Source: Nanobdella aerobiophila (GTDB taxonomy: Archaea; Nanobdellota; Nanobdellia; Nanobdellales; Nanobdellaceae). From it: a stretch of 32,000 bases of DNA. Location of the stretch: the NCBI RefSeq assembly GCF_023169545.1, contig NZ_AP019769.1, forward strand, positions 30,001-62,000, written 5' to 3'. Shown piece by piece: positions 6,617 to 28,001 of the stretch. Numbering within the stretch: position 1 is the stretch's first letter; each line of letters opens with the position of its first letter. The notes beneath the pieces are model-generated. The model was not told where the DNA came from and made no database searches. It saw nothing but the letters and a program-made list of their open reading frames with translations. Made by a program: the position numbers and the translations under genes.

Positions 6617-7546
6617 TTATAGATTTTCTTTTATTATTTCTCCTCCACCTCCATAGAAACCGATTGGTATTACAGTATTATTTAATGTAAATATTGGTCC
6701 CCCACCAACATCTGGATCGTATCCATTAATCATTTTCGTTATCCCCATTTCTGGATGTTGGTAATATATCTGATTTAGTTCTGTAGCATTTATATTTACA
6801 TTATTATTTATATTTCCTGTAGCTATATCATTTATAATATTATCTAAATTATGTTCATCCGTATAGAATAATCCGACGTATGGTCTTTCATTCGAATTTG
6901 AAAATAAGCTATCTATATTTAATACTGTACTTCCATTAATATTTTCTTCAGGTATTACAACTACACCATTTCTGCCTGTATCACCTGCAGCTATTATAAC
7001 AAATGGTTCTTGTGCATATGGTCCGGAAACTGATACACCATATGTTTTTTCTATATAATTTTGAACTACCGGGCTTGTCTCTGCATAATTTATATCATTT
7101 AATAATTCTTGAACTGGTCCAAATTTAAATAATACAGGTTGAGTAATCTCATGACCATCTTGATAATAAATTTCTGTTCCAGAATATATATTATTCTGAT
7201 CTGTTGGTTTTATATTATCAATAAATACATAATTTGTATCAATTGTTTGCTCTTGAGGATGTAATATTCCGCCGCCTATTAAATATAGAGCAGCTATCCC
7301 CGCACCTGCAGCTATGCCAGCACCAATGGCTATAAATTTTCCAGGCAACCCTTGTTTACCTTTATATCTATTATATCTAGAGAATGAATCATAAGTCCCT
7401 AATCCCAACCTTACAGGAGTAAAGGGAACTGCGTATAATATAGATCTTGGATTTTCCGTTATATAACCAAGAACTTCCTTTGCCTCCTTCATTTTTACCT
7501 TGATCTTACCTAAAAGATTATCAAGACTAGCTCTAGCATTTACCAT
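6617..7546 (-). CDS. Type II-oriented membrane protein with Gly/Ala-zipper transmembrane helix
   Basis: 309 aa. A ~70-aa charged N-terminal region, then KFIAIGAGIAAGAGIAALYLIGGGIL, then a low-charge extracytoplasmic domain. It is the only minus-strand gene inside the surface-protein block. Confidence 0.75.
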   Translation of the reverse strand: MVNARASLDNLLGKIKVKMKEAKEVLGYITENPRSILYAVPFTPVRLGLGTYDSFSRYNRYKGKQGLPGKFIAIGAGIAAGAGIAALYLIGGGILHPQEQTIDTNYVFIDNIKPTDQNNIYSGTEIYYQDGHEITQPVLFKFGPVQELLNDINYAETSPVVQNYIEKTYGVSVSGPYAQEPFVIIAAGDTGRNGVVVIPEENINGSTVLNIDSLFSNSNERPYVGLFYTDEHNLDNIINDIATGNINNNVNINATELNQIYYQHPEMGITKMINGYDPDVGGGPIFTLNNTVIPIGFYGGGGEIIKENL

Positions 7547-10094: not shown

Positions 10095-11243
10095 ATGGTA
10101 GAGGACATATTAGATGCTTTAGTAGCTAGCATATTTTTAATAATTGTAATATTTATAGGGGTTAATATACCATACTTAGCAGCTAAAATATTTGGAGCTA
10201 ATAATCCTTATGCTGTTTTAGAGACTGCAGGATTTATTACATATGCAACATCCATACCAGGGGGGATTCAAGGATTAATATATATTTCTAGCGGGCCATC
10301 CATAGGTTATGAATTTAGGATTGCTCCACCAATAAATACAGGTTGGGTATTCGGTCAATATAATAATAATGATTTTTTAGTTTCTATAGGTTATTGTGAA
10401 AATCAAAACCTATGGGATCAATTTGGTATGGATTTTTTTAATTCTGTATTGACTGCAATGTTTGCTCAAGTTCCTGCTGCTGATGAAGCAGAAATTGCTT
10501 TAGAAGGCGCAGAGACCTTGGTAGAAGAATCGCCATCAGTTTCTAGTCTAGTTCAAAGTTATTTAAAATCCAGTTCAAAATTATTTGCGAATAGTTTTGC
10601 TGGAAATGAAATATTTGGAACTGCGATAGGATTATATAGATATTTGCAGGATCAAAATTCTGGAGGAATTGGTACAGCACTATATTCATCAGCTATGACT
10701 ATATTACCAACTGCATTAGAGGGCGCTGCTGTAGGTACATTGGAAGTATTGGCTGATAATGCAATTATAGCTGCTACAGGTCCTATAGGTTATGGAATAT
10801 CTATAGGCGTAAATATGATAGTCAACTCAGCAATAACATTATATAATTATGAAAATATTGCTAATAATGATTATGCAAGGTGTTATTATAATGACCAGTT
10901 ATTAAGTAGCGGTCAATATTTTGTATATTATAATTTATTATCCTTACCAGTATTTTATAATCCAGAATTTTCATTAATAAATCAATGCTATTTAGATGCT
11001 AAAAATCCGGGAAATCAGGAAGCAATATATTATGAATATTTATGCAATGGATTTAATAGCAATCAACAAAATCAAACGATATATCAATCAGGATCTCAGT
11101 ATGGATACTACATATTTAAATTAGAATTGGGTGTGGAGTATCAGGGTTATTATTATTATCCGGCTTATTTATCCTTAGATAAGAATAATTTGGATGGTAA
11201 TCATGAAATAAATATAAGTATAATACCCAATAAAATATCATGA
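10095..11243 (+). CDS. N-terminally anchored protein with Ala/Gly-rich hydrophobic and acidic central region
   Basis: Start placed at ATG 10095, 1 nt after the preceding stop; the track's 10050 start lies inside the previous gene. MVEDILDALVASIFLIIVIFIGV. Central AADEAEIALEGAETLVEE and ALEGAAVGTLEVLADNAIIAATGPIGYGISIGV. Confidence 0.75.
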   Translation: MVEDILDALVASIFLIIVIFIGVNIPYLAAKIFGANNPYAVLETAGFITYATSIPGGIQGLIYISSGPSIGYEFRIAPPINTGWVFGQYNNNDFLVSIGYCENQNLWDQFGMDFFNSVLTAMFAQVPAADEAEIALEGAETLVEESPSVSSLVQSYLKSSSKLFANSFAGNEIFGTAIGLYRYLQDQNSGGIGTALYSSAMTILPTALEGAAVGTLEVLADNAIIAATGPIGYGISIGVNMIVNSAITLYNYENIANNDYARCYYNDQLLSSGQYFVYYNLLSLPVFYNPEFSLINQCYLDAKNPGNQEAIYYEYLCNGFNSNQQNQTIYQSGSQYGYYIFKLELGVEYQGYYYYPAYLSLDKNNLDGNHEINISIIPNKIS

Positions 11244-18884: not shown

Positions 18885-21468
18885 TCTTGAGAAATTATAT
18901 CCAAAAAAAGCTTTAGAATCTTTGGATCTGTATAGGAAGCAATGCAAAATATGTAATAGATTTTTTTGGACAAAAGATAAGAATAGAGAAGTATGTGGTG
19001 ATCACGAAAATTATGGTTTTATAAAAAATCCTTTAGGTACAAAGTTATCATATAATGAAGTTTATGATAATTTTGCAAAATATATGAATTCTAGAGGTTA
19101 TATAAGTATAAATAGATATCCTGTAGTGGCTAGATGGAGGGATGATATAGATTTTGTAATTGCTTCCATTGCAGATTTTCAACCATGGGTAGTGGAAGGG
19201 TACACCGATCCTCCATCCAAAAAACTAACTGTACCTCAATTTTGTCTAAGATTCAATGATATAGATAATGTTGGATTAACAGGCAGGCATTATACAGGTT
19301 TCGTTATGATTGGTCAGCATGCATTTATGAAACCTGAAGAATATAATAAAGACCAATATTTTCTAGATCTATATTATTGGTTTGAAGAAAATAAATTTCC
19401 GATGGAGGAGTTTTTATTTCATGAAGATAAATGGGAAGGTGGAGGAAATGGGGGTACATCAATAGAATTTTTTATAAGAGGATTAGAAGTAGCTAATCAG
19501 GTTTATATGCAATATAAGATAATAGATAATCAATGGGTAGAATTGGATAAATTAAAGGTTTTAGATATGGGTATGGGTCAGGAGAGGATTGCATGGATAA
19601 CCAATGGAACACCTACATCTTATGATATTGTCTTCCCAAATACAGTAAAATTTTTGCTAAATAATATTAATTATGATATAGATTATGATCTATTTAATAA
19701 AATTTCTATGTATTCTTCTTTATTTGACTTTGAAAAATATGATATAAATGATTTTGAAAAATATTTAAGGGAAAAGGGAATTTATGATAATAAATTATTG
19801 GAAATTATGCATGCTATATATTTAATCTCTGATCATATTAGAACATTATATATAGCAATATCTGATGGAGCTTTACCATCCAATATGGGAGGTAATTATA
19901 ATTTAAGGTTAATTAGTAGGAGAATGTTTTATTTTATTGATAAGTATTTTGGAGAAGATTCTTATTCATTTATAAAAAAATTATTAAATTATATATCATT
20001 AGATTGGAGGGAGAAGGTAGATATAAATGAAATATATAATATATTAATATATGAATATGAGAAATATAAAGATATAAAGAAAAATGCTCAAAAATTATTA
20101 GATAAAAACCTGGATACTAGGAAAATATTCGAACTATATACGTCTTCGGGGATATCTCTAGAGATAATGAAAGATATAAATCCTAATATTAATATAAATA
20201 AAGAAGAATTCAGTAGGTTATTAAGCCAGCATAAAAATATAAGTAAAAAGGAGAATAAGAAAGAAGAATTTTATATAGATATAAATTATCCAGAGACATA
20301 TAAATCATTTTATGATTCATGGAAGAAATATTATGAAATATCTAAATTTTATGGGAAGATTGATTATAAGAATTCAATATATTATATATTTGATAGAACT
20401 GTGTTTTATCCAACAAAAGGAGGACAAATACATGATACAGGATATATATTCGATCTGAATAATATAAAAAAATATTCAAAAGATGTTCTGGATAATTATA
20501 ATTTTCCAGATTATGTAAAGGATGAATTAGTTAAATATATGACTGGTAATTTAAAAGAAGATTTTGAAAAATATTTCGCAAGAGTTGTCGATGTAATAGA
20601 GTATAAAAAAATAATATTACATAAAGTAGATAAGGATATTGAAATCTCAGGTGAAATATTGCAAATTATAGATAAAGGTAGGAGATATAGAATATCTAGG
20701 CATCATACAGCAACCCACTTATTAACCTCTGTATTGAGAAATATTTATGGTAATCATATATGGCAAGCAGGTGCAGAAAAAGATGAATATGAAGGTAGAC
20801 TAGATATTACTCATTATAAGGTACCAAGCTATGAAGAAATAAAATTGATAGAAAAAAATGCCAATAATATAATATTGGAAGGTAGAAAAATAAATAAATT
20901 CTATTTAAAGAGAAATGAAGCTGAAAAATTATATGGATTTACAATATATCAAGGAGGATTTATACCAGAAACAAATTTAAGAATAGTTAATATAGAAAAT
21001 ACAGATGTAGAAGCATGTTCAGGAACTCATTTAGATAATACATTAGAAATTGGGTTAATAAAAATAATATCTGTTGAGAAGATAGCTGATGGAATGATTA
21101 GATTCAGGTTTATTGCTGGAGATAGGATAATAGAAGAATATGAAAATATGGAAGAAAGATTGAATAATATAAGGAATAAATATGGTATCGATATAAATAA
21201 TTTGAATAATTATATAGAAAAAATAAATAAAGATAGGGAAGAGAATAGTAAGAAGATAAATAGTTTATTGGAAGAATATATAAGAAATAATATAAAAGAT
21301 GGGAGAATATATATGGAAACCTCCTTAAAAATATCAGATATTATTAAATATGTACTAAGGTATAAAGATATTATAAAAGATATAGAGATAAAATGTAAAG
21401 ATGGTATTATTAGTTCTAAAGGTGGAGATAAGAAGATTGATAAATTTTATATAAAAAACTATGAATAG
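18874..21468 (+). CDS. alaS: Alanyl-tRNA synthetase
   Basis: 864 aa, GTG start. N-terminal Zn-ribbon-like CKICNRFFWT...CGD. Catalytic-core FCLRFNDIDNVGLTGRHYTGFVMIGQHAF. Editing-domain HHTATHLL and CSGTH motifs. Unsplit gene. Confidence 0.92.
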   Translation: MQSDLEKLYPKKALESLDLYRKQCKICNRFFWTKDKNREVCGDHENYGFIKNPLGTKLSYNEVYDNFAKYMNSRGYISINRYPVVARWRDDIDFVIASIADFQPWVVEGYTDPPSKKLTVPQFCLRFNDIDNVGLTGRHYTGFVMIGQHAFMKPEEYNKDQYFLDLYYWFEENKFPMEEFLFHEDKWEGGGNGGTSIEFFIRGLEVANQVYMQYKIIDNQWVELDKLKVLDMGMGQERIAWITNGTPTSYDIVFPNTVKFLLNNINYDIDYDLFNKISMYSSLFDFEKYDINDFEKYLREKGIYDNKLLEIMHAIYLISDHIRTLYIAISDGALPSNMGGNYNLRLISRRMFYFIDKYFGEDSYSFIKKLLNYISLDWREKVDINEIYNILIYEYEKYKDIKKNAQKLLDKNLDTRKIFELYTSSGISLEIMKDINPNININKEEFSRLLSQHKNISKKENKKEEFYIDINYPETYKSFYDSWKKYYEISKFYGKIDYKNSIYYIFDRTVFYPTKGGQIHDTGYIFDLNNIKKYSKDVLDNYNFPDYVKDELVKYMTGNLKEDFEKYFARVVDVIEYKKIILHKVDKDIEISGEILQIIDKGRRYRISRHHTATHLLTSVLRNIYGNHIWQAGAEKDEYEGRLDITHYKVPSYEEIKLIEKNANNIILEGRKINKFYLKRNEAEKLYGFTIYQGGFIPETNLRIVNIENTDVEACSGTHLDNTLEIGLIKIISVEKIADGMIRFRFIAGDRIIEEYENMEERLNNIRNKYGIDINNLNNYIEKINKDREENSKKINSLLEEYIRNNIKDGRIYMETSLKISDIIKYVLRYKDIIKDIEIKCKDGIISSKGGDKKIDKFYIKNYE

Positions 21469-22871
21469 TCATTAGTTATTAGATCTTCTATAAATTTATA
21501 CCAGATGTTTTTATTATTTAATTTATTATAATAATCTATTGAAAATATTAATAATAATATTAAGAAAGATAAACTGGAAAATATTATATTGTTTATAAAC
21601 AATGGTGCCATGTCAATAAATGTATATATTGATAATATTATTATAGATAAAAAGTTTTTGATATCTAATCTTGTGAACTGTCTATCATAAGAGTATCCTT
21701 TGTATTGTGGATTTAATTTTCCAGAATAGTACCAAGAAGGTATATTTATAGATATTGGTAATAATATTATTGAATATATAGAATATATATAGTAAATATT
21801 ATTTTTTAGTATAAATAATATGAAAAATGATATAATAAATGGTAATAATATCTTGTAAGAATTGTTTAATCTGTAGTTCATCTTTTTTCTAATATAATTC
21901 ATAAAATAATAATTTCCAGCATTTACCCATACTCTTTCAAAGCCAATGGATAGCTCTAGACCTACTGCAGAACTATATAATAATAAAAAGATAATATAAA
22001 TTGAAAATATATTTTTTATATAAAAAAATATAAATATTAAAATAGAGATAATGGAAGAAAATATAATTAAATATTTTAACAAAGAGTTCGATATATCTTT
22101 TATAGGATCTTTAGTTCTAAATATAGATCTATTTTCTATAAAATTTATATCATCATTGTATATAGAATATGGATCTGTATAAAACTTATAGAAATCTTTT
22201 CCAGATATTAAATATATTATTATTAAATATATTGATAATATTGGTGTAAAGTATATTTTGGATAATAATATATTTATTTCAGGATAATAGAATATATTTA
22301 GAAAGATTAATAATATAGGGAAGATAGAATATATAGTCTTTTTTATTATATTAGATGGTAAATATACTATAAGAGATATTATATATGAATATATTAAAGA
22401 ATTTAATATAGTAATTAATATTATTATGGTGTTTAGTTGATGGAATAAATATAATTGATATATATATGAGAAAAAAAATGGTAATATTATAAAATATATA
22501 AATATTAAGAATGATAGACTCTTAAGTAATATATATCTATCTATCTTAAGATCAGATGATAATATAAAATCAATTTCTGTTTTTGTATATACGATATTGC
22601 CATATAGATTTATCTTTTTATTTCCAGAATATATGTTTATTATTATAAAGAAAATATTTGTTAATATTAATATAAAAGATATCCATAATAATGCTCCAAT
22701 ACTAGAAGAAATATATAGAAATGGAAATATATTTTTTGGAATTATTTTATATAAATTTAGAAAATATATAGAAATTAATATAGGAGAATAAATGAGAATG
22801 AAATATATCAGCATATATAATAATATTTGACTTTTGGTATACATATCCTTTATTATAAATTTCAATATCAT
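21459..22871 (-). CDS. Polytopic membrane protein, putative ABC-2-type permease
   Basis: 470 aa, extremely hydrophobic with 10 or more predicted helices. 4-nt overlap with the upstream ABC ATPase gene. Confidence 0.6.
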   Translation of the reverse strand: MILKFIIKDMYTKSQILLYMLIYFILIYSPILISIYFLNLYKIIPKNIFPFLYISSSIGALLWISFILILTNIFFIIINIYSGNKKINLYGNIVYTKTEIDFILSSDLKIDRYILLKSLSFLIFIYFIILPFFFSYIYQLYLFHQLNTIIILITILNSLIYSYIISLIVYLPSNIIKKTIYSIFPILLIFLNIFYYPEINILLSKIYFTPILSIYLIIIYLISGKDFYKFYTDPYSIYNDDINFIENRSIFRTKDPIKDISNSLLKYLIIFSSIISILIFIFFYIKNIFSIYIIFLLLYSSAVGLELSIGFERVWVNAGNYYFMNYIRKKMNYRLNNSYKILLPFIISFFILFILKNNIYYIYSIYSIILLPISINIPSWYYSGKLNPQYKGYSYDRQFTRLDIKNFLSIIILSIYTFIDMAPLFINNIIFSSLSFLILLLIFSIDYYNKLNNKNIWYKFIEDLITNDYS

Positions 22872-23554
22872 CTTAATAATTTTATTATATTATCTTCTAA
22901 ATTATCTTTAATCTTTTCTATATTATCATTAAATATTATTTTACCTTTATTTATTAATATTATTCTATTAGCTATTTTTTCTGCTAATGATACTATGTGG
23001 GTAGAAATTATCTTTAGATTATTTCTTTCCTTTAATAAATTAATCGTTTTATATTGTGTTTCTAGATCTAGATAATTTAATGGTTCATCTAATAATAATA
23101 TTTCTGTATCTAATATTAATACCATAGATAATGATAATTTTTGTTTATTTCCTCTAGATAAGTTTATTGCTCTGTAATTTTTATATTTATCTAGATCAAA
23201 GAAATTTAAATAATAATCAATTTTATTATATAAATTATCTATACTTCTTAATAATCCTATATACTCTAGATTTTCTTTTACAGATAAATTGATGAACGGT
23301 ATTGGTTCTTCAGGTAAATATCCAATATACTTCTTAGCTCCTTCAGGATTTTTTAATAAATCTATATTTTTTATATATATGTTTCCAGAATCTGGTTTTA
23401 ATAAACCTGCTAATATCTTTATTGTAGTGCTTTTCCCTGCACCATTTGGACCAATTAAAAATACATTTTCTTTTTTATCTATTTCAAAAGATATATTATC
23501 GAGAGCCTTTATATTTTCATAGCTTTTTGATATATTCTCTACTTTTATCATCAT
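22868..23554 (-). CDS. ABC transporter ATP-binding protein
   Basis: 228 aa. Walker A GPNGAGKSTT, signature LSRGNKQKLSL, Walker B LLLDEP. Confidence 0.9.
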   Translation of the reverse strand: MMIKVENISKSYENIKALDNISFEIDKKENVFLIGPNGAGKSTTIKILAGLLKPDSGNIYIKNIDLLKNPEGAKKYIGYLPEEPIPFINLSVKENLEYIGLLRSIDNLYNKIDYYLNFFDLDKYKNYRAINLSRGNKQKLSLSMVLILDTEILLLDEPLNYLDLETQYKTINLLKERNNLKIISTHIVSLAEKIANRIILINKGKIIFNDNIEKIKDNLEDNIIKLLR

Positions 23555-23564
23555 ATTTATATTT

Positions 23565-23984
23565 TTATTGATCTATTGATATATTTAATTTTTTATATAT
23601 AAATTCTCTAACCTTTTCAGCAATATCTATAGCTTCTTTAGCATCTTCTTCAGTAACATTTTCTATAGATTTAGGATCATATCTAGATTTTATGGAATAT
23701 TTTGATAATTCTTCTATCATTTTTACTCCTGTAGATTTTTCTAATGAATTGAAGCTTTTGTCTATGTTTTTGCATTCATCTATTAATATCCTTATATCAT
23801 GAGTTCTATGTTTATATATATCAAAATAATTTTTGTATACTAAAAATGCTTTCAAATACTTTTCTACAGATTGTTGAGATAAAAAACATGCAATTCTATA
23901 ATGAGAGAGTTTATATATATCTTTTGCAGTTTTTAAATCGTCATCAGCTAATTTTAACCAATCTATTATATTTTCATCAATCAT
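23565..23984 (-). CDS. HEPN-domain protein (putative toxin), unit 1, last gene of array
   Basis: 139 aa. QQSVEKYLKAFL, THDIRIL and SRYD motifs of the MNT-associated HEPN family. The C-terminal EEDAKEAIDIAEKVREFIYKKLNI is shared with the other three, but the last 4 aa are SIDQ rather than DNNI. Confidence 0.8.
   Translation of the reverse strand: MIDENIIDWLKLADDDLKTAKDIYKLSHYRIACFLSQQSVEKYLKAFLVYKNYFDIYKHRTHDIRILIDECKNIDKSFNSLEKSTGVKMIEELSKYSIKSRYDPKSIENVTEEDAKEAIDIAEKVREFIYKKLNISIDQ
23581..23651. repeat. Partial copy (HEPN-tail part only) of the 215-bp junction repeat
   Basis: atatttaattttttatatataaattctctaaccttttcagcaatatctatagcttctttagcatcttcttca is identical to the corresponding part of the full copies. 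Confidence 0.85.
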
Positions 23985-24307
23985 AATAGTATCTTTCCTT
24001 CATTTTTAGCCCAATAATATACAAATAATTTACTTTTAGATCTTTTATCAAATTCTTGATTATCTACTATTAGTAAATCGACGGATTTATTCAATGAATT
24101 TACTAAATAATAGTGTATATCACACCATAAATTATCATATAGATCTTTATCCAATTTATCTTCAGTTATAATTAATATATCATAATCAGAATCTTCTCTA
24201 TAATCTCCTCTAGCTCTAGATCCAAATAATATAATTTTATCTATTTTAATATTATATTCATTTGCAACATCATATATTACTTTCTTAATTATTTCCAAAT
24301 CATTCAT
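23981..24307 (-). CDS. Minimal nucleotidyltransferase (MNT, putative antitoxin), unit 1
   Basis: 108 aa. Pol-beta NTase motif LFGSRARGDYREDSDYDI, third acidic residue in SVDLLIVD. ATGA overlaps on both sides. Confidence 0.85.
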   Translation of the reverse strand: MNDLEIIKKVIYDVANEYNIKIDKIILFGSRARGDYREDSDYDILIITEDKLDKDLYDNLWCDIHYYLVNSLNKSVDLLIVDNQEFDKRSKSKLFVYYWAKNEGKILL

Positions 24308-24391
24308 ATATTATTATCTATATTTAATTTTTTATATATAAATTCTCTAACCTTTTCAGCAATATCTATAGCTTCTTTAGCATCTTCTTCA
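24177..24391. repeat. 215-bp junction repeat, full copy 1
   Basis: By-eye comparison shows nucleotide identity with 24913-25127 and 25619-25833. Spans the first 44 MNT codons, the ATGA overlap and the last 28 HEPN codons. Confidence 0.9.
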
Positions 24392-24720
24392 TTAACATTT
24401 TTTATAAATTCTATATCATATCTAGATAAGACAGAATAATCTGAAACTATTTGGAACTTTTCAATTCCTATCAATTCTCTCAATATTATAAAATTATTAT
24501 CTATTTTTATACATTCATCTAATAATTTATTTATATTATGAATCTTATGTTTTTTAGGATTAAAGATATTATTTTCTATTAGAAATGCTTTTAAATATAA
24601 TTCTATAGCTTGTTGACTCCAAAAACATGAACTAGAGTACAAAGAATTTTGAAAACTTTTTTTAGATGTATCGAGATCTATATCAGCAATTTCAATGTAT
24701 TCTTTAGTATCTTCTTTCAC
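24304..24720 (-). CDS. HEPN-domain protein (putative toxin), unit 2
   Basis: QQAIELYLKAFL, KIHNINKL, SRYD. Start placed at GTG 24720 (GTGA overlap with the MNT stop). This aligns VKEDTKEYIEIADIDL with the N-termini of units 1 and 3. The track's ATG at 24750 would add MGGKGRYINK from inside the MNT gene. Confidence 0.75.
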   Translation of the reverse strand: MKEDTKEYIEIADIDLDTSKKSFQNSLYSSSCFWSQQAIELYLKAFLIENNIFNPKKHKIHNINKLLDECIKIDNNFIILRELIGIEKFQIVSDYSVLSRYDIEFIKNVNEEDAKEAIDIAEKVREFIYKKLNIDNNI

Positions 24721-25043
24721 TTTATTAATATACCTTCCTTTTCCGCCCAATAATATACAAATCCTCTATAAATCTTTTTTTCTTCAAATTCTTCTTTATT
24801 TATACAAAGAAGATCTATTGATTTATCTAGCTTAGCTAATAGTTCCCAATTTATTTTTCCCAAAAATTTATAGTATAGATCTTTATCCAATTTATCTTCA
24901 GTTATAATTAATATATCATAATCAGAATCTTCTCTATAATCTCCTCTAGCTCTAGATCCAAATAATATAATTTTATCTATTTTAATATTATATTCATTTG
25001 CAACATCATATATTACTTTCTTAATTATTTCCAAATCATTCAT
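24717..25043 (-). CDS. Minimal nucleotidyltransferase (MNT), unit 2
   Basis: 108 aa. The first 44 aa are identical to the other three MNTs. GSRARG...DSDYD motif. Confidence 0.85.
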   Translation of the reverse strand: MNDLEIIKKVIYDVANEYNIKIDKIILFGSRARGDYREDSDYDILIITEDKLDKDLYYKFLGKINWELLAKLDKSIDLLCINKEEFEEKKIYRGFVYYWAEKEGILIK

Positions 25044-25127
25044 ATATTATTATCTATATTTAATTTTTTATATATAAATTCTCTAACCTTTTCAGCAATA
25101 TCTATAGCTTCTTTAGCATCTTCTTCA
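24913..25127. repeat. 215-bp junction repeat, full copy 2
   Basis: Identical to the copy at 24177-24391. Identity with that copy extends a further 39 nt (24874-24912 = 24138-24176). Confidence 0.9.
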
Positions 25128-25438
25128 GTAACAATATATTTTACTGGATATCTTATTTCTATTCCTATTGGATATAATTTATCAGCATTAATATTGTATA
25201 GATATTTAAAATCTGTATCCATTTTCATACAATATTCTATTAATAATGATATATCATGTATTTTATTTAAAGGTATATTTTTATAAGTTATAAAGGCTTT
25301 TAGATATTTTTCTATTGCTTGTTGAGAATGAAATAATGAATAATCATATAATTCGTTATATAATAGTATTTTAGCAGATTTTAAATCTCTATCTGCTTTT
25401 TCTAACCATTCTTTAGTTTTTTCAATTATTTCATTCAT
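25040..25438 (-). CDS. HEPN-domain protein (putative toxin), unit 3
   Basis: 132 aa. QQAIEKYLKAFI, KIHDISLL, IRYP. Conserved C-terminal 28 aa. Confidence 0.8.
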   Translation of the reverse strand: MNEIIEKTKEWLEKADRDLKSAKILLYNELYDYSLFHSQQAIEKYLKAFITYKNIPLNKIHDISLLIEYCMKMDTDFKYLYNINADKLYPIGIEIRYPVKYIVTEEDAKEAIDIAEKVREFIYKKLNIDNNI

Positions 25439-25749
25439 AATATTTTTCCTTCTAAATTTAAAATTCCGGCTATATCTCCATATGTATTTTTATATTTATC
25501 AAAATATTTTTTTTCTAATATTATTATATCTATAGGTTTCATTATTTTTCTAACTATCTCTCTATGTACTTTAGATATAAATTCTTTTAGGTCTATAATA
25601 CTATAAACTATTATTGCTATATCATAATCAGAATCTTCTCTATAATCTCCTCTAGCTCTAGATCCAAATAATATAATTTTATCTATTTTAATATTATATT
25701 CATTTGCAACATCATATATTACTTTCTTAATTATTTCCAAATCATTCAT
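25435..25749 (-). CDS. Minimal nucleotidyltransferase (MNT), unit 3
   Basis: 104 aa. Identical N-terminal 44 aa, then a unique C-terminal half. Confidence 0.85.
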   Translation of the reverse strand: MNDLEIIKKVIYDVANEYNIKIDKIILFGSRARGDYREDSDYDIAIIVYSIIDLKEFISKVHREIVRKIMKPIDIIILEKKYFDKYKNTYGDIAGILNLEGKIL

Positions 25750-25833
25750 ATATTATTATCTATATTTAATTTTTTATATATAAATTCTCTAACCTTTTCA
25801 GCAATATCTATAGCTTCTTTAGCATCTTCTTCA
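25619..25833. repeat. 215-bp junction repeat, full copy 3
   Basis: Identical to the other full copies. Spacing between copies is 736, 706 and 709 bp. Confidence 0.9.
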
Positions 25834-26135
25834 TTAACAATAATAAATGGAGGATATCTAGTTCCAGAATAATATTTGTTTAATTTTTCTGGTTTTATAT
25901 TTAATAAGTATTCAAAATCTTTATTATATTTTATACATTTATTTATTAGCTCTTTTATATTATGTATAAAAGGATATCCATTGTTTATATATAATAGAAA
26001 AGCTTTCAAATACTTTTCTACAGCCTGTTGTGCCAAAAAGCACGAAATCCTGTAATGATTTAGTTTTAAATTATCTATTGAAGAATTTAGATCATCGTCA
26101 GCAGATTTTAATAATTCTTCTATATCTTCTTTCAC
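25746..26135 (-). CDS. HEPN-domain protein (putative toxin), unit 4
   Basis: QQAVEKYLKAFL, FIHNIKEL, TRYP. Start placed at GTG 26135 (GTGA overlap) rather than the track's ATG 26165. Confidence 0.75.
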   Translation of the reverse strand: MKEDIEELLKSADDDLNSSIDNLKLNHYRISCFLAQQAVEKYLKAFLLYINNGYPFIHNIKELINKCIKYNKDFEYLLNIKPEKLNKYYSGTRYPPFIIVNEEDAKEAIDIAEKVREFIYKKLNIDNNI

Positions 26136-26458
26136 TTTATTAATATACCTTCCTTTTCCGCCCAATAATATACAAATCCTCTATAAATCTTTTTCTTTTC
26201 AAAATCTTTTTTGTCTATTAATATTAAATCAATATCTTTATGTAAGATATCTGTTAATCTATCAAATAGAGAAATCCAAAAATCATTAATTATATTATAA
26301 TCAATCTTTTCTTCAGTTATAATTAATATATCATAATCAGAATCTTCTCTATAATCTCCTCTAGCTCTAGATCCAAATAATATAATTTTATCTATTTTAA
26401 TATTATATTCATTTGCAACATCATATATTACTTTCTTAATTATTTCCAAATCATTCAT
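26132..26458 (-). CDS. Minimal nucleotidyltransferase (MNT), unit 4, first gene of array
   Basis: 108 aa. Identical N-terminal 44 aa. The C-terminal KKIYRGFVYYWAEKEGILIK is identical to unit 2. Confidence 0.85.
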   Translation of the reverse strand: MNDLEIIKKVIYDVANEYNIKIDKIILFGSRARGDYREDSDYDILIITEEKIDYNIINDFWISLFDRLTDILHKDIDLILIDKKDFEKKKIYRGFVYYWAEKEGILIK

Positions 26459-26491
26459 ATATTATTATCTATATTTAATTTTTTATATATA
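26328..26491. repeat. Partial copy of junction repeat (MNT head plus 33-nt orphan HEPN tail)
   Basis: Identity continues past the MNT-4 start codon into 26459-26491. On the minus strand this stretch still reads IYKKLNIDNNI-stop, although no HEPN body precedes it. Confidence 0.85.
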
Positions 26492-26575
26492 GAGGGGTTG
26501 AATATATACTTTCTTATAAAAATAAAGTAAAGCAAAATTATATATTATATAACTTTTAAACTAAATAATATATAT

Positions 26576-26659
26576 GCGGCGGTGTCCGAGAGGCCAAAGG
26601 AGATCGGTTTAGGTCCGACTGGTGTAGAACCGCCAGGGGTTCAAATCCCCTCCGCCGCA
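26576..26659 (+). tRNA. tRNA-Leu (anticodon UAG), class II with long variable arm
   Basis: Hand-folded. Acceptor GCGGCGG/CCGCCGC, anticodon loop UUUAGGU, variable arm GGUG...CGCC, T arm AGGGG-UUCAAAU-CCCCU, discriminator A. No encoded CCA. One A-C mismatch at the base of the anticodon stem. Confidence 0.85.
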
Positions 26660-27214
26660 TTAGTATTCTAATGTAAATCCTCCTATAACATCGCCTTTGA
26701 TTAAATTATATTCTATGTTTTCTACTAGTAAAAAAGGATATAATCTTGGTTTATGATTTAGAAGCTTTTTTATTAGTGAGAAATCCTTTTTGATTGTTAT
26801 ATAATCTATACCCCATATAAAATCGAAATTCAGATCTTGGATATAGTACTTATTGTTTATTATAATATCTTCAATTTCAGAGTCTTTTATAATCATATCT
26901 AGATTCTTGACTGGCATAATCTTATATTTAGTAGTATTAAAGTTATTGTTGTATATAATTGTAATATACATATTTTTTATTTCTTTTCTATTAGATCTTG
27001 ATATAAGAATAAGGTCTTTGTGGGTTCTATTTAGGCTTTTATAAAATTTTTCTATATAATATAGCAAATCTTTTTTAGTATAAAAATAGTCAGTATAATA
27101 ATTTTCAGTATCTTCAACTGTAATATAATAAAAATCAATGTCTGGTTCTATGTATTTTAGTATTTTATTAGATCTTAATAATACATTCCTTATTTTAGAG
27201 TTGATATTCAACAT
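26660..27214 (-). CDS. Hypothetical protein (orphan)
   Basis: 184-aa ORF with no recognisable motif. Its stop codon directly abuts the 3' end of tRNA-Leu. Confidence 0.5.
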   Translation of the reverse strand: MLNINSKIRNVLLRSNKILKYIEPDIDFYYITVEDTENYYTDYFYTKKDLLYYIEKFYKSLNRTHKDLILISRSNRKEIKNMYITIIYNNNFNTTKYKIMPVKNLDMIIKDSEIEDIIINNKYYIQDLNFDFIWGIDYITIKKDFSLIKKLLNHKPRLYPFLLVENIEYNLIKGDVIGGFTLEY

Positions 27215-27926: not shown

Positions 27927-28001
27927 TGGACCCGGGGGGATTCGAACCCCCGATCTCCTGGACCGCGACCAGGAATTTTATCCATGCTAGACTACGGGTC
28001 C
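27927..28001 (-). tRNA. tRNA-Arg (anticodon GCG), atypical
   Basis: Hand-folded. Acceptor GGACCCG/CGGGUCC, anticodon stem CCUGG/CCAGG, loop UCGCGGU, T arm GGGGG-UUCGAAU-CCCCC, with U8, A14, G18G19 and A58 present. Position 33 is C instead of the near-universal U, and the D stem has a C-A mismatch. Confidence 0.6.

Follow-up and report, generated by a model that had tools for sequence, protein, structure and literature searches.

INTRODUCTION

How can tandem copies of a gene pair be identical, base for base, in the DNA that joins each pair to the next, and strongly diverged in between? This question is raised by an array in the genome of the archaeon Nanobdella aerobiophila, located in a 32,000-nucleotide (nt) stretch of contig NZ_AP019769.1 (positions 30,001 to 62,000; hereafter the window, numbered from its first base). 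The array consists of four tandem pairs, each comprising a gene for a minimal nucleotidyltransferase (MNT) followed by a gene for a HEPN protein. Few gene pairs of thermophilic archaea are more abundant than MNT-HEPN modules, and the basis of their partner specificity and of the diversification of the family is poorly known. Here, we conclude, with a probability of roughly 80%, that the junction DNA of an array of four intact paralogous modules is kept identical by homologous recombination between repeats, whether by gene conversion, by unequal crossing-over or by both.

RESULTS

Four MNT-HEPN pairs form one array

The array occupies the minus strand of the window (25% G+C) from 26458 to 23565 and contains eight intact co-directional open reading frames (ORFs). 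A previous interpretation made from the letters of the window alone (hereafter the sequence-only reading) had described eight minus-strand genes alternating between nucleotidyltransferase (NTase) and HEPN, and both the ORFs and their Pfam matches bear this out. From the upstream end, unit Nae1 is composed of MNT4 (26132–26458; 108 aa) and HEPN4 (25746–26135), unit Nae2 of MNT3 (25435–25749; 104 aa) and HEPN3 (25040–25438; 132 aa), unit Nae3 of MNT2 (24717–25043; 108 aa) and HEPN2 (24304–24720), and unit Nae4 of MNT1 (23981–24307; 108 aa) and HEPN1 (23565–23984; 139 aa). The MNT4 product, with an intact GSX10DXD motif, is 100% identical to the NCBI protein 'nucleotidyltransferase [Nanobdella aerobiophila]'. 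The matches returned by a protein search include four N. aerobiophila homologues of MNT4, all of them in the array.

The start codons of HEPN2 and HEPN4 are most likely GTG at 24720 and GTG at 26135, respectively, rather than the mechanically listed upstream TTG (at 26165 for HEPN4). These starts are favoured because homologues begin with MKE(D/E)T at this position, and because each GTG overlaps the stop codon of the preceding MNT gene as GTGA. Given these starts, a 4-nt overlap (ATGA or GTGA) is present at every internal gene junction (7/7), so that the eight genes look like a single translationally coupled unit.

Identical blocks span the junctions between pairs

The three internal pair junctions share a block of 216 nt, made up of the 84-nt 3′ end of one HEPN gene and the first 132 nt of the next MNT gene. 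Specifically, block J43 (25618–25833, minus strand like the other copies) comprises the last 28 codons of HEPN4, the ATGA overlap and the first 44 codons of MNT3, block J32 (24912–25127) comprises the 3′ end of HEPN3 and the 5′ end of MNT2, and block J21 (24176–24391) comprises the 3′ end of HEPN2 and the 5′ end of MNT1. The sequence-only reading had reported three identical blocks of 215 nt (24177–24391, 24913–25127 and 25619–25833). The identity holds at every base, with zero differences in a careful comparison of the three full copies, while the size needs correction: three-way identity extends over 216 nt and pairwise identity further, up to 222 and 254 nt, the latter for J32 versus J21.

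Partial copies of the block are located at both ends of the array. The upstream copy (26327–26491, minus strand) comprises the first 132 nt of MNT4 and 33 nt of non-coding DNA (26459–26491) that match the 3′ end of a HEPN gene. The downstream copy (23580–23658, minus strand), in the 3′ end of HEPN1, is identical to J32 over 79 nt and to all copies over 71 nt; its identity stops 15 nt before the HEPN1 stop codon, where no MNT gene follows. The terminal copies proposed previously (23581–23651, 71 nt; 26328–26491, 164 nt) are indeed exact sub-strings of the block.

The units recur with periods of 736, 706 and 709 nt. Between the blocks lie segments, hereafter cassettes or variable parts, which contain the C-terminal half of the MNT and the N-terminal three quarters of its partner HEPN and are only 55–64% identical in nucleotide sequence.

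The borders of the shared tracts differ from copy to copy. Into the MNT gene, the tract ends after 132 nt in unit 3, 149 nt in unit 4 and 170 nt in units 1 and 2 (unit numbers following those of the genes); on the HEPN side it ends after 84 or 90 nt, where a VN/VT polymorphism marks the edge. Furthermore, the cassettes of units 4 and 2 share a second tract across the MNT stop and HEPN start (26089–26212 and 24674–24797, both on the minus strand; 90% over 127 nt), such that both MNTs have the same C-terminus, KKIYRGFVYYWAEKEGILIK. This tract indicates that conversion has also occurred within cassettes.

Block identity bears the signature of recombination

Synonymous sites were compared at codons where two paralogues have the same amino acid. 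Within N. aerobiophila, paralogues use the same codon at all 416 sites of this kind in the block (counted pairwise) and at 278 of 396 (0.70) in the variable part. The rate expected from the codon usage of the window is 0.63–0.65, so that chance is excluded as the source of the agreement in the block. Between genomes, the same-codon rate of the block (0.58–0.77) does not differ from that of the variable part (0.60–0.71). The synonymous sites of the block are therefore free between lineages and uniform only within a genome, a pattern characteristic of gene conversion or unequal crossing-over.

A non-coding footprint provides further evidence. The identity runs 33 nt upstream of the MNT4 start codon, where it copies the last codons of a HEPN gene that is not there. 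Similar footprints are present in two other arrays, described below: in one (L167), identity runs 66 nt upstream of the first MNT gene; in the other (L108), a 42-nt remnant of an MNT 5′ end follows the last HEPN gene.

Concerted evolution is thus visible as identity at synonymous and non-coding positions, and as mosaic tracts with differing ends (132, 149 and 170 nt; 84 and 90 nt; and the additional 127-nt tract). The sequence-only reading had attributed the blocks to conversion or unequal crossing-over, rather than to purifying selection alone; the synonymous comparison, the 33-nt footprint and the differing tract ends support it.

The same architecture is present in at least five other lineages

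We searched genome and metagenome contigs with profiles built from the MNT alignment. The matches listed comprise 80 loci, mostly distant bacterial MNTs and none from N. aerobiophila itself, among which L006, L015, L017 and L108 are informative. Comparison of the locus across related genomes reveals the same architecture in at least five other lineages. A 141-kb metagenome contig from the Joint Genome Institute (JGI; L004) carries three tandem pairs with periods of 736 and 709 nt and a block of 262 nt at 99.6–100% identity (99.6% by BLAST). One metagenome-assembled genome (MAG) of Aenigmatarchaeota (L005 and L006) carries ten pairs, with identities of up to 99% between neighbouring junctions (248 nt at 99% in L005) and 85–91% between distant ones. 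Blocks are also present in two further Aenigmatarchaeota MAGs (237 nt at 97% in L167; 195 nt at 87% in L169), in another JGI metagenome contig (L108; 204 nt at 90%), and in a Desulfurococcales MAG with 48% G+C (L015; 254 nt at 98%, 282–535 versus 1844–2096, starting about 30–40 nt upstream of the MNT gene). In the Nanopore-hybrid genome of Nanobdellota strain YN1 (L003), the pairs are dispersed and the corresponding identity is 84%. A scan of viral contigs found no close relatives.

Two of these loci also contain degenerate units. The two MNT genes of L015 share the block, and the HEPN gene of the second copy is truncated. In L005 (3027–3846), the HEPN of the first unit is reduced to 88 aa and a 125-nt gap follows the MNT gene, a decaying cassette in an otherwise intact array.

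Blocks follow the genome and cassettes follow the type

Amino-acid identities were computed across 21, and then 29, units, and the segments were clustered by the unweighted pair group method with arithmetic mean (UPGMA). At the amino-acid level, blocks are 0.89 identical within genomes and 0.68 between genomes, while variable parts are 0.41 identical within genomes and 0.38 between genomes. Paralogues are thus closer to each other than to their counterparts in other genomes in the converted segment only. Consistent with this, UPGMA groups the blocks strictly by lineage, whereas the clusters of the variable parts cut across lineages: {Nae3, JGI1, AenA2, AenB2, YN1_3, AenD1, AenE1}, {Nae2, AenA4, AenB3, AenB6}, {Nae1, YN1_1} and {JGI2, JGI3, AenC2, AenC3}. 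Each of the four units in the window represents a cassette type of its own. Type clusters across lineages, together with lineage-bound blocks, indicate that the cassettes are old or have been exchanged between lineages, and that their flanks are re-homogenised in each genome.

The order and copy number of cassette types vary among arrays, as expected from the proposal of the sequence-only reading that cassettes are gained, lost or reordered. In particular, the neighbour after a B2-like unit is B3 in L006 and a B4-like unit in L169, while L167 has its J3-like and J2-like units in the opposite order to L004.

The homogenised unit is also out of phase with the gene pair. An Aenigmatarchaeota MAG is informative here because its blocks are not fully identical. 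In this genome, the similarity among MNT 5′ ends tracks that among the 3′ ends of the preceding HEPN genes (Spearman 0.84; Mantel, 4/720 permutations) and shows no correlation with that among their own partner HEPN genes (Spearman 0.17; 212/720 permutations), so that the phase shift first noticed in the window holds in an independent genome. The Mantel test between MNT-variable and HEPN-variable distances is significant, but so is that of all other segment pairs, and it is therefore non-discriminating.

The block encodes the most conserved parts of both proteins

All four MNTs match PF01909/PF18765 (E 1e-9 to 1e-14) at 38–52 bits, above the gathering cut-offs of 21/26.9, and the HEPNs match PF05168 (E 1e-24 to 1e-28) at 86–99 bits, with a gathering cut-off of 22. 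The GSX10DXD motif is present in 4/4 MNTs as G29-S30, ten residues, and D41-Y-D43, and is invariant in a 34-sequence alignment. The invariant features of the HEPNs are QQxxE..K, a His and an RY loop. The RX4HXY (Rx4-6H) motif of HepT is absent from these HEPNs, which show R-Y-(P/D) with no His 5–7 residues after the Arg, the conserved His being located about 30 residues upstream of RY. With the MntA equivalog model NF047752, the MNTs score 44.5 and 46.1 bits, below its 60-bit cut-off; the HEPNs have no match in NCBIfam, and PADLOC reports only the candidate family PDC-S09. Judged by these motifs and scores, the modules are HEPN-T/MNT modules of the thermophile type and not members of the HepT-MntA family.

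The HEPN profile matches the structures 1wol and 1ufb at E 1e-12. We predicted the structure of a fused MNT3-HEPN3 chain with AlphaFold2 (AF2) from a 4-row alignment; the model is of moderate confidence (mean predicted local distance difference test score, pLDDT, 76; predicted template modelling score, pTM, 0.56) and came with no contact output. Foldseek matches it to 1wol, 1ufb, 1o3u and 2hsb, confirming both folds. In the model, the block corresponds to MNT residues 1–44 (α1, β1, G-loop and β2), which hold the GSX10DXD catalytic core, and to the C-terminal helix of HEPN (residues 105–126). Family-wide, the segments encoded by the block are the most conserved parts of both proteins (0.68 versus 0.38 between genomes).

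In all four pairs, the antitoxin-like gene comes first and overlaps the toxin-like gene, as in type VII systems. By analogy with these systems, the pairs may act as type VII-like toxin-antitoxin (TA) pairs, in which the MNT would nucleotidylate the Tyr of the HEPN RY loop. By a further analogy, the MNT-HEPN interface may be located in the variable part. In a Legionella HEPN-MNT pair, a 108-aa MNT contacts HEPN through helix α2 and the α2-β3 loop, and HEPN uses α3 and α4 (PMC11586414); the counterparts of these elements fall in the variable segments of the AF2 model. The Legionella HEPN, a member of another subfamily with RX4HXY, goes undetected by the HEPN profile at E ≤ 0.1, so that the interface analogy applies at the fold level only.

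Genes and repeats around the array

ARAGORN calls a G+C-rich, 86-nt tRNA-Leu(tag) at 26575–26660 on the plus strand, 84 nt upstream of the array; a scan at Rfam gathering thresholds lists tRNA-Arg (27927–28001) only, and not this tRNA. The end of tRNA-Leu abuts a 184-aa ORF (26660–27214, minus strand) with no Pfam match. Downstream, the minus-strand region 21459–23554 carries an ATP-binding cassette (ABC) transporter ATPase gene (22868–23554), which starts 10 nt after the HEPN1 stop codon, and, overlapping it, a gene for a membrane protein of 470 aa that lacks Pfam matches. These two genes may share a transcript with the array.

No integrase or recombinase is encoded by the 184-aa ORF, the ABC ATPase gene or ten more ORFs between 15227 and 31300, and no other mobile-element gene is found among the flanking ORFs scanned. 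No inverted repeats were found within or flanking the blocks. With neither a nearby integrase nor attC-like inverted repeats, the array does not resemble an integron or another site-specific cassette system.

Other arrays have other neighbours. In YN1 and in Aenigmatarchaeota MAGs, a gene for an AAA_14 and DUF4143 ATPase recurrently converges with, and overlaps, the last HEPN gene (L003 6818–8074 and 10720–12036; L005 5259–6353; L167 2234–3502; L168 1306–2574); the N. aerobiophila window lacks this association. A 300-nt repeat of YN1 (6751–7050 versus 10653–10952; 97%) spans the ends of both the ATPase and the HEPN genes. A predicted toxin-antitoxin pair, comprising a PIN-domain gene and an AF2212-like (COG2880) gene, adjoins the MNT-HEPN array of L169 (1351–1931). 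Unrelated repeats are present in other loci: a 346-nt tandem duplicate (122–467 and 478–823 of L009; 99%) lies upstream of a Pyrodictiaceae MNT gene, a Dehalococcoidia genome has three tandem NTase-like genes of about 270 aa that are about 94% identical over 1.5 kb (L085 4307–6689), and a Latescibacterota locus contains repeats with a 45-nt period (L021 2508–2820).

DISCUSSION

Proposed recombination across pair junctions

We propose the following mechanism for the homogenisation of the junctions. Each module consists of a minimal Pol-beta nucleotidyltransferase and a HEPN-T/PF05168 protein, and recombination would homogenise the C-terminal helix of HEPN and the α1-β1-G-loop-β2 core of MNT across the pair junctions. 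The centre of each unit would be a different ancient cassette type, too diverged from the others to recombine. In the simplest account, only the conserved segments would retain enough identity to seed recombination and, once homogenised, would become its preferred substrate. The conserved HEPN and MNT segments are neighbours across the boundary between pairs, and this places the homogenised unit out of phase with the genes. Crossovers within the blocks would allow whole cassettes to be duplicated, deleted or reordered with reading frames unbroken, while selection presumably keeps the four cassettes distinct.

Several points weigh against this proposal. L004–L006 are short-read assemblies and could have units wrongly ordered across identical repeats of 250 nt. 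A Chloroflexi MAG (L017) has two tandem pairs with no junction block, indicating that tandem arrangement alone is insufficient for the pattern. A single genome does not allow gene conversion to be distinguished from unequal crossing-over, and both ongoing conversion and copy-number heterogeneity are deduced from assembled sequence rather than directly observed. The homogenisation is also undated, the comparison set containing no close Nanobdella relative.

The locus is informative in several respects. With its counterparts in at least five other lineages, it provides a natural partition of both proteins into a uniform part, comprising the NTase core and the last HEPN helix, and a part represented by old, distinct types, and thereby predicts, in a form open to direct test, which part of the proteins holds cognate or target specificity. 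It also illustrates how arrays of toxin-antitoxin-like genes can alter their copy number and order while avoiding broken or mismatched genes, and it shows concerted evolution driven by recombination at work in the 0.67-Mb genome of a symbiont.

Alternative and extended explanations

A more ambitious interpretation, which we regard as possible and put forward tentatively, is that the layout is adaptive. The variable segment would then hold both halves of a recognition surface, the pairs would be kept insulated from one another, and the block would serve as a recombination module and promoter, permitting matched cassettes to be exchanged inside one genome or from one to another, much as with the orphan toxin-immunity cassettes in contact-dependent growth inhibition (CDI) and Rhs loci. 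Consistent with this interpretation, the variable segment is one contiguous piece, its MNT and HEPN clusters agree for the most part across phyla, all four units in the window, each of a different type, are intact in a genome of 0.67 Mb, cassette order varies between arrays, and the interface elements of the Legionella pair map to the variable segments. However, this placement of the interface would rest on fold-level analogy and on a model of moderate confidence without contacts; the two variable halves, being physically linked, would be expected to agree on that ground alone, and recombination limited to conserved segments requires no adaptive design. The layout could have arisen as a side effect of recombination that is limited to the two best-conserved segments of the proteins, and not as an adaptation. 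A corollary of the adaptive interpretation, to which we likewise assign somewhat less than even odds, is that the block is an exchange module carrying the promoter of the next unit, and that DPANN and crenarchaeal genomes share an ancient pool of insulated type VII-like TA (or defence) cassettes. If true, this would amount to a so far undescribed recombination-based cassette system for TA modules, in which cassettes are duplicated, dropped, reordered and imported.

The pairs might instead be split two-subunit nucleotidyltransferases of the kanamycin nucleotidyltransferase (KNTase) and HI0073-HI0074 kind, with HEPN as the substrate-binding subunit and the variable segment determining the small molecule or macromolecule to be modified. 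We consider this unlikely. The role first proposed for HEPN-T was that of a substrate-binding subunit of MNT, and the choice between a TA and an antibiotic-NTase function was left open (Makarova 2009); furthermore, the HEPNs of the array have no Rx4-6H motif, and weak similarity to ANT(9), LinB and AadA is detected with NCBIfam and Foldseek. Against such a role, the MNT-first order and the 4-nt overlaps are typical of antitoxin-toxin operons, Anantharaman 2013 cites a genome-wide screen in which motif-less HEPN proteins were toxic, and the conserved Tyr of the RY loop is located at the position of the Tyr that is AMPylated in type VII systems.

Could the block be a functional DNA or RNA element, such as a promoter or operator, a translational-coupling signal or a structured RNA, under purifying selection? 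A TATA-like sequence, TATATATAAAAAA, lies 21–33 nt upstream of every MNT start codon; upstream of MNT4 (26479–26491, minus strand; −33 to −21 of the ATG), it is exactly at the start of the non-coding copy, and in each internal HEPN gene the same bases are codons for (F)IYKK. In L015, too, a TATA-like TTATAAAAG marks the beginning of the shared block, about 30 nt ahead of the MNT start codon. From the position of these sequences, each block may carry the archaeal TATA box and promoter of the next unit. Such a promoter would cover about 15–40 nt, not 216–254 nt; the synonymous sites of the block are randomised between lineages, indicating that most of the 216 nt is unconstrained as DNA; and the block RNA folds no better than shuffled sequences (z = −0.10). 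We therefore reject a functional element as the source of block identity, as a highly improbable explanation.

If one pair had recently been duplicated in tandem and the middles of the copies had then diverged very fast, tandem units with near-constant periods (706–736 nt) would be accounted for, but this explanation is rejected as scarcely credible, because the variable parts are as diverged within a genome as between phyla (0.41 versus 0.38), their synonymous sites are near saturation and their nearest relatives are often in other phyla. An assembly artefact, in which strain variants or dispersed paralogues are joined across a shared repeat, might be suspected from two short-read Logan contigs (L001 and L002, from runs DRR287719 and DRR261008) that both end in the terminal partial block at about 23609, the expected behaviour of a de Bruijn assembler at a genuine repeat, and is equally discounted, since the window matches the finished 668,961-bp genome of a cultured strain, the HEPN-stop/MNT-start junction sequence is possible only with tandem pairs, and the same architecture is present in independent assemblies, including the Nanopore-hybrid YN1 genome.

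Comparison with known systems

The sequence-only reading had supposed that this phase-shifted architecture is undescribed, and a literature search found neither a prior description nor an account combining HEPN, MNT and gene conversion; the literature on Nanobdellota genomes that we consulted does not mention MNT-HEPN genes. The closest known systems are the thermophile-type modules of COG1708/COG1669 MNT with COG2250 HEPN-T, whose TA nature was predicted and left open, and which include clusters of several MNT and HEPN genes in crenarchaea (Makarova 2009; Anantharaman 2013). The array shares with them the same two Pfam families, the MNT-first order, small proteins, a patchy mobile distribution and an expansion in (hyper)thermophilic archaea. 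In contrast, these two comparative papers describe no identical junction blocks, no concerted evolution of HEPN 3′ and MNT 5′ ends and no cross-phylum cassette types.

The HepT-MntA systems of Shewanella, Aphanizomenon and Legionella likewise have a GSX10DXD MNT upstream of HEPN and a HEPN Tyr in the loop before the last helix, and the Legionella MNT is also about 108 aa long, without the long α4 helix. The modules of the array, known from their sequences, differ in having a PF05168 HEPN with RY and a separate His, rather than a DUF86/HepT protein with RX4HXY, and in an MntA score of 44–46 bits versus the cut-off of 60. KNTase and HI0073/HI0074 resemble the pairs in combining a Pol-beta NTase domain with a helical HEPN-like partner, but their full-length structural matches are poor (root-mean-square deviation 11–15 Å) and the array has no resistance context.

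In CDI loci (cdiA-CT/cdiI) and Rhs orphan arrays, variable cassettes of matched pairs stand in tandem, each after a conserved stretch of homology that enables in-frame swaps. The array similarly has tandem variable cassettes with matched interacting parts and a conserved stretch suited to frame-safe recombination. It differs in that there is no large main toxin gene, the array being bounded by the tRNA-Leu gene and the ABC transporter, in that every unit is complete and presumably expressed, and in that the conserved stretch spans two genes of neighbouring pairs.

In fliC, the target-recognition domains of hsdS, Neisseria opa and pil, and streptococcal emm-like genes, the flanks are homogenised by conversion, the centres are old allelic types, and the trees of the two disagree. 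The array shows the same combination of homogenised conserved flanks, old variable centres and discordant trees. Unlike in those genes, its variable unit is made of parts of two genes and its homogenised flank crosses the boundary between gene pairs; the pattern is a new variant of concerted evolution.

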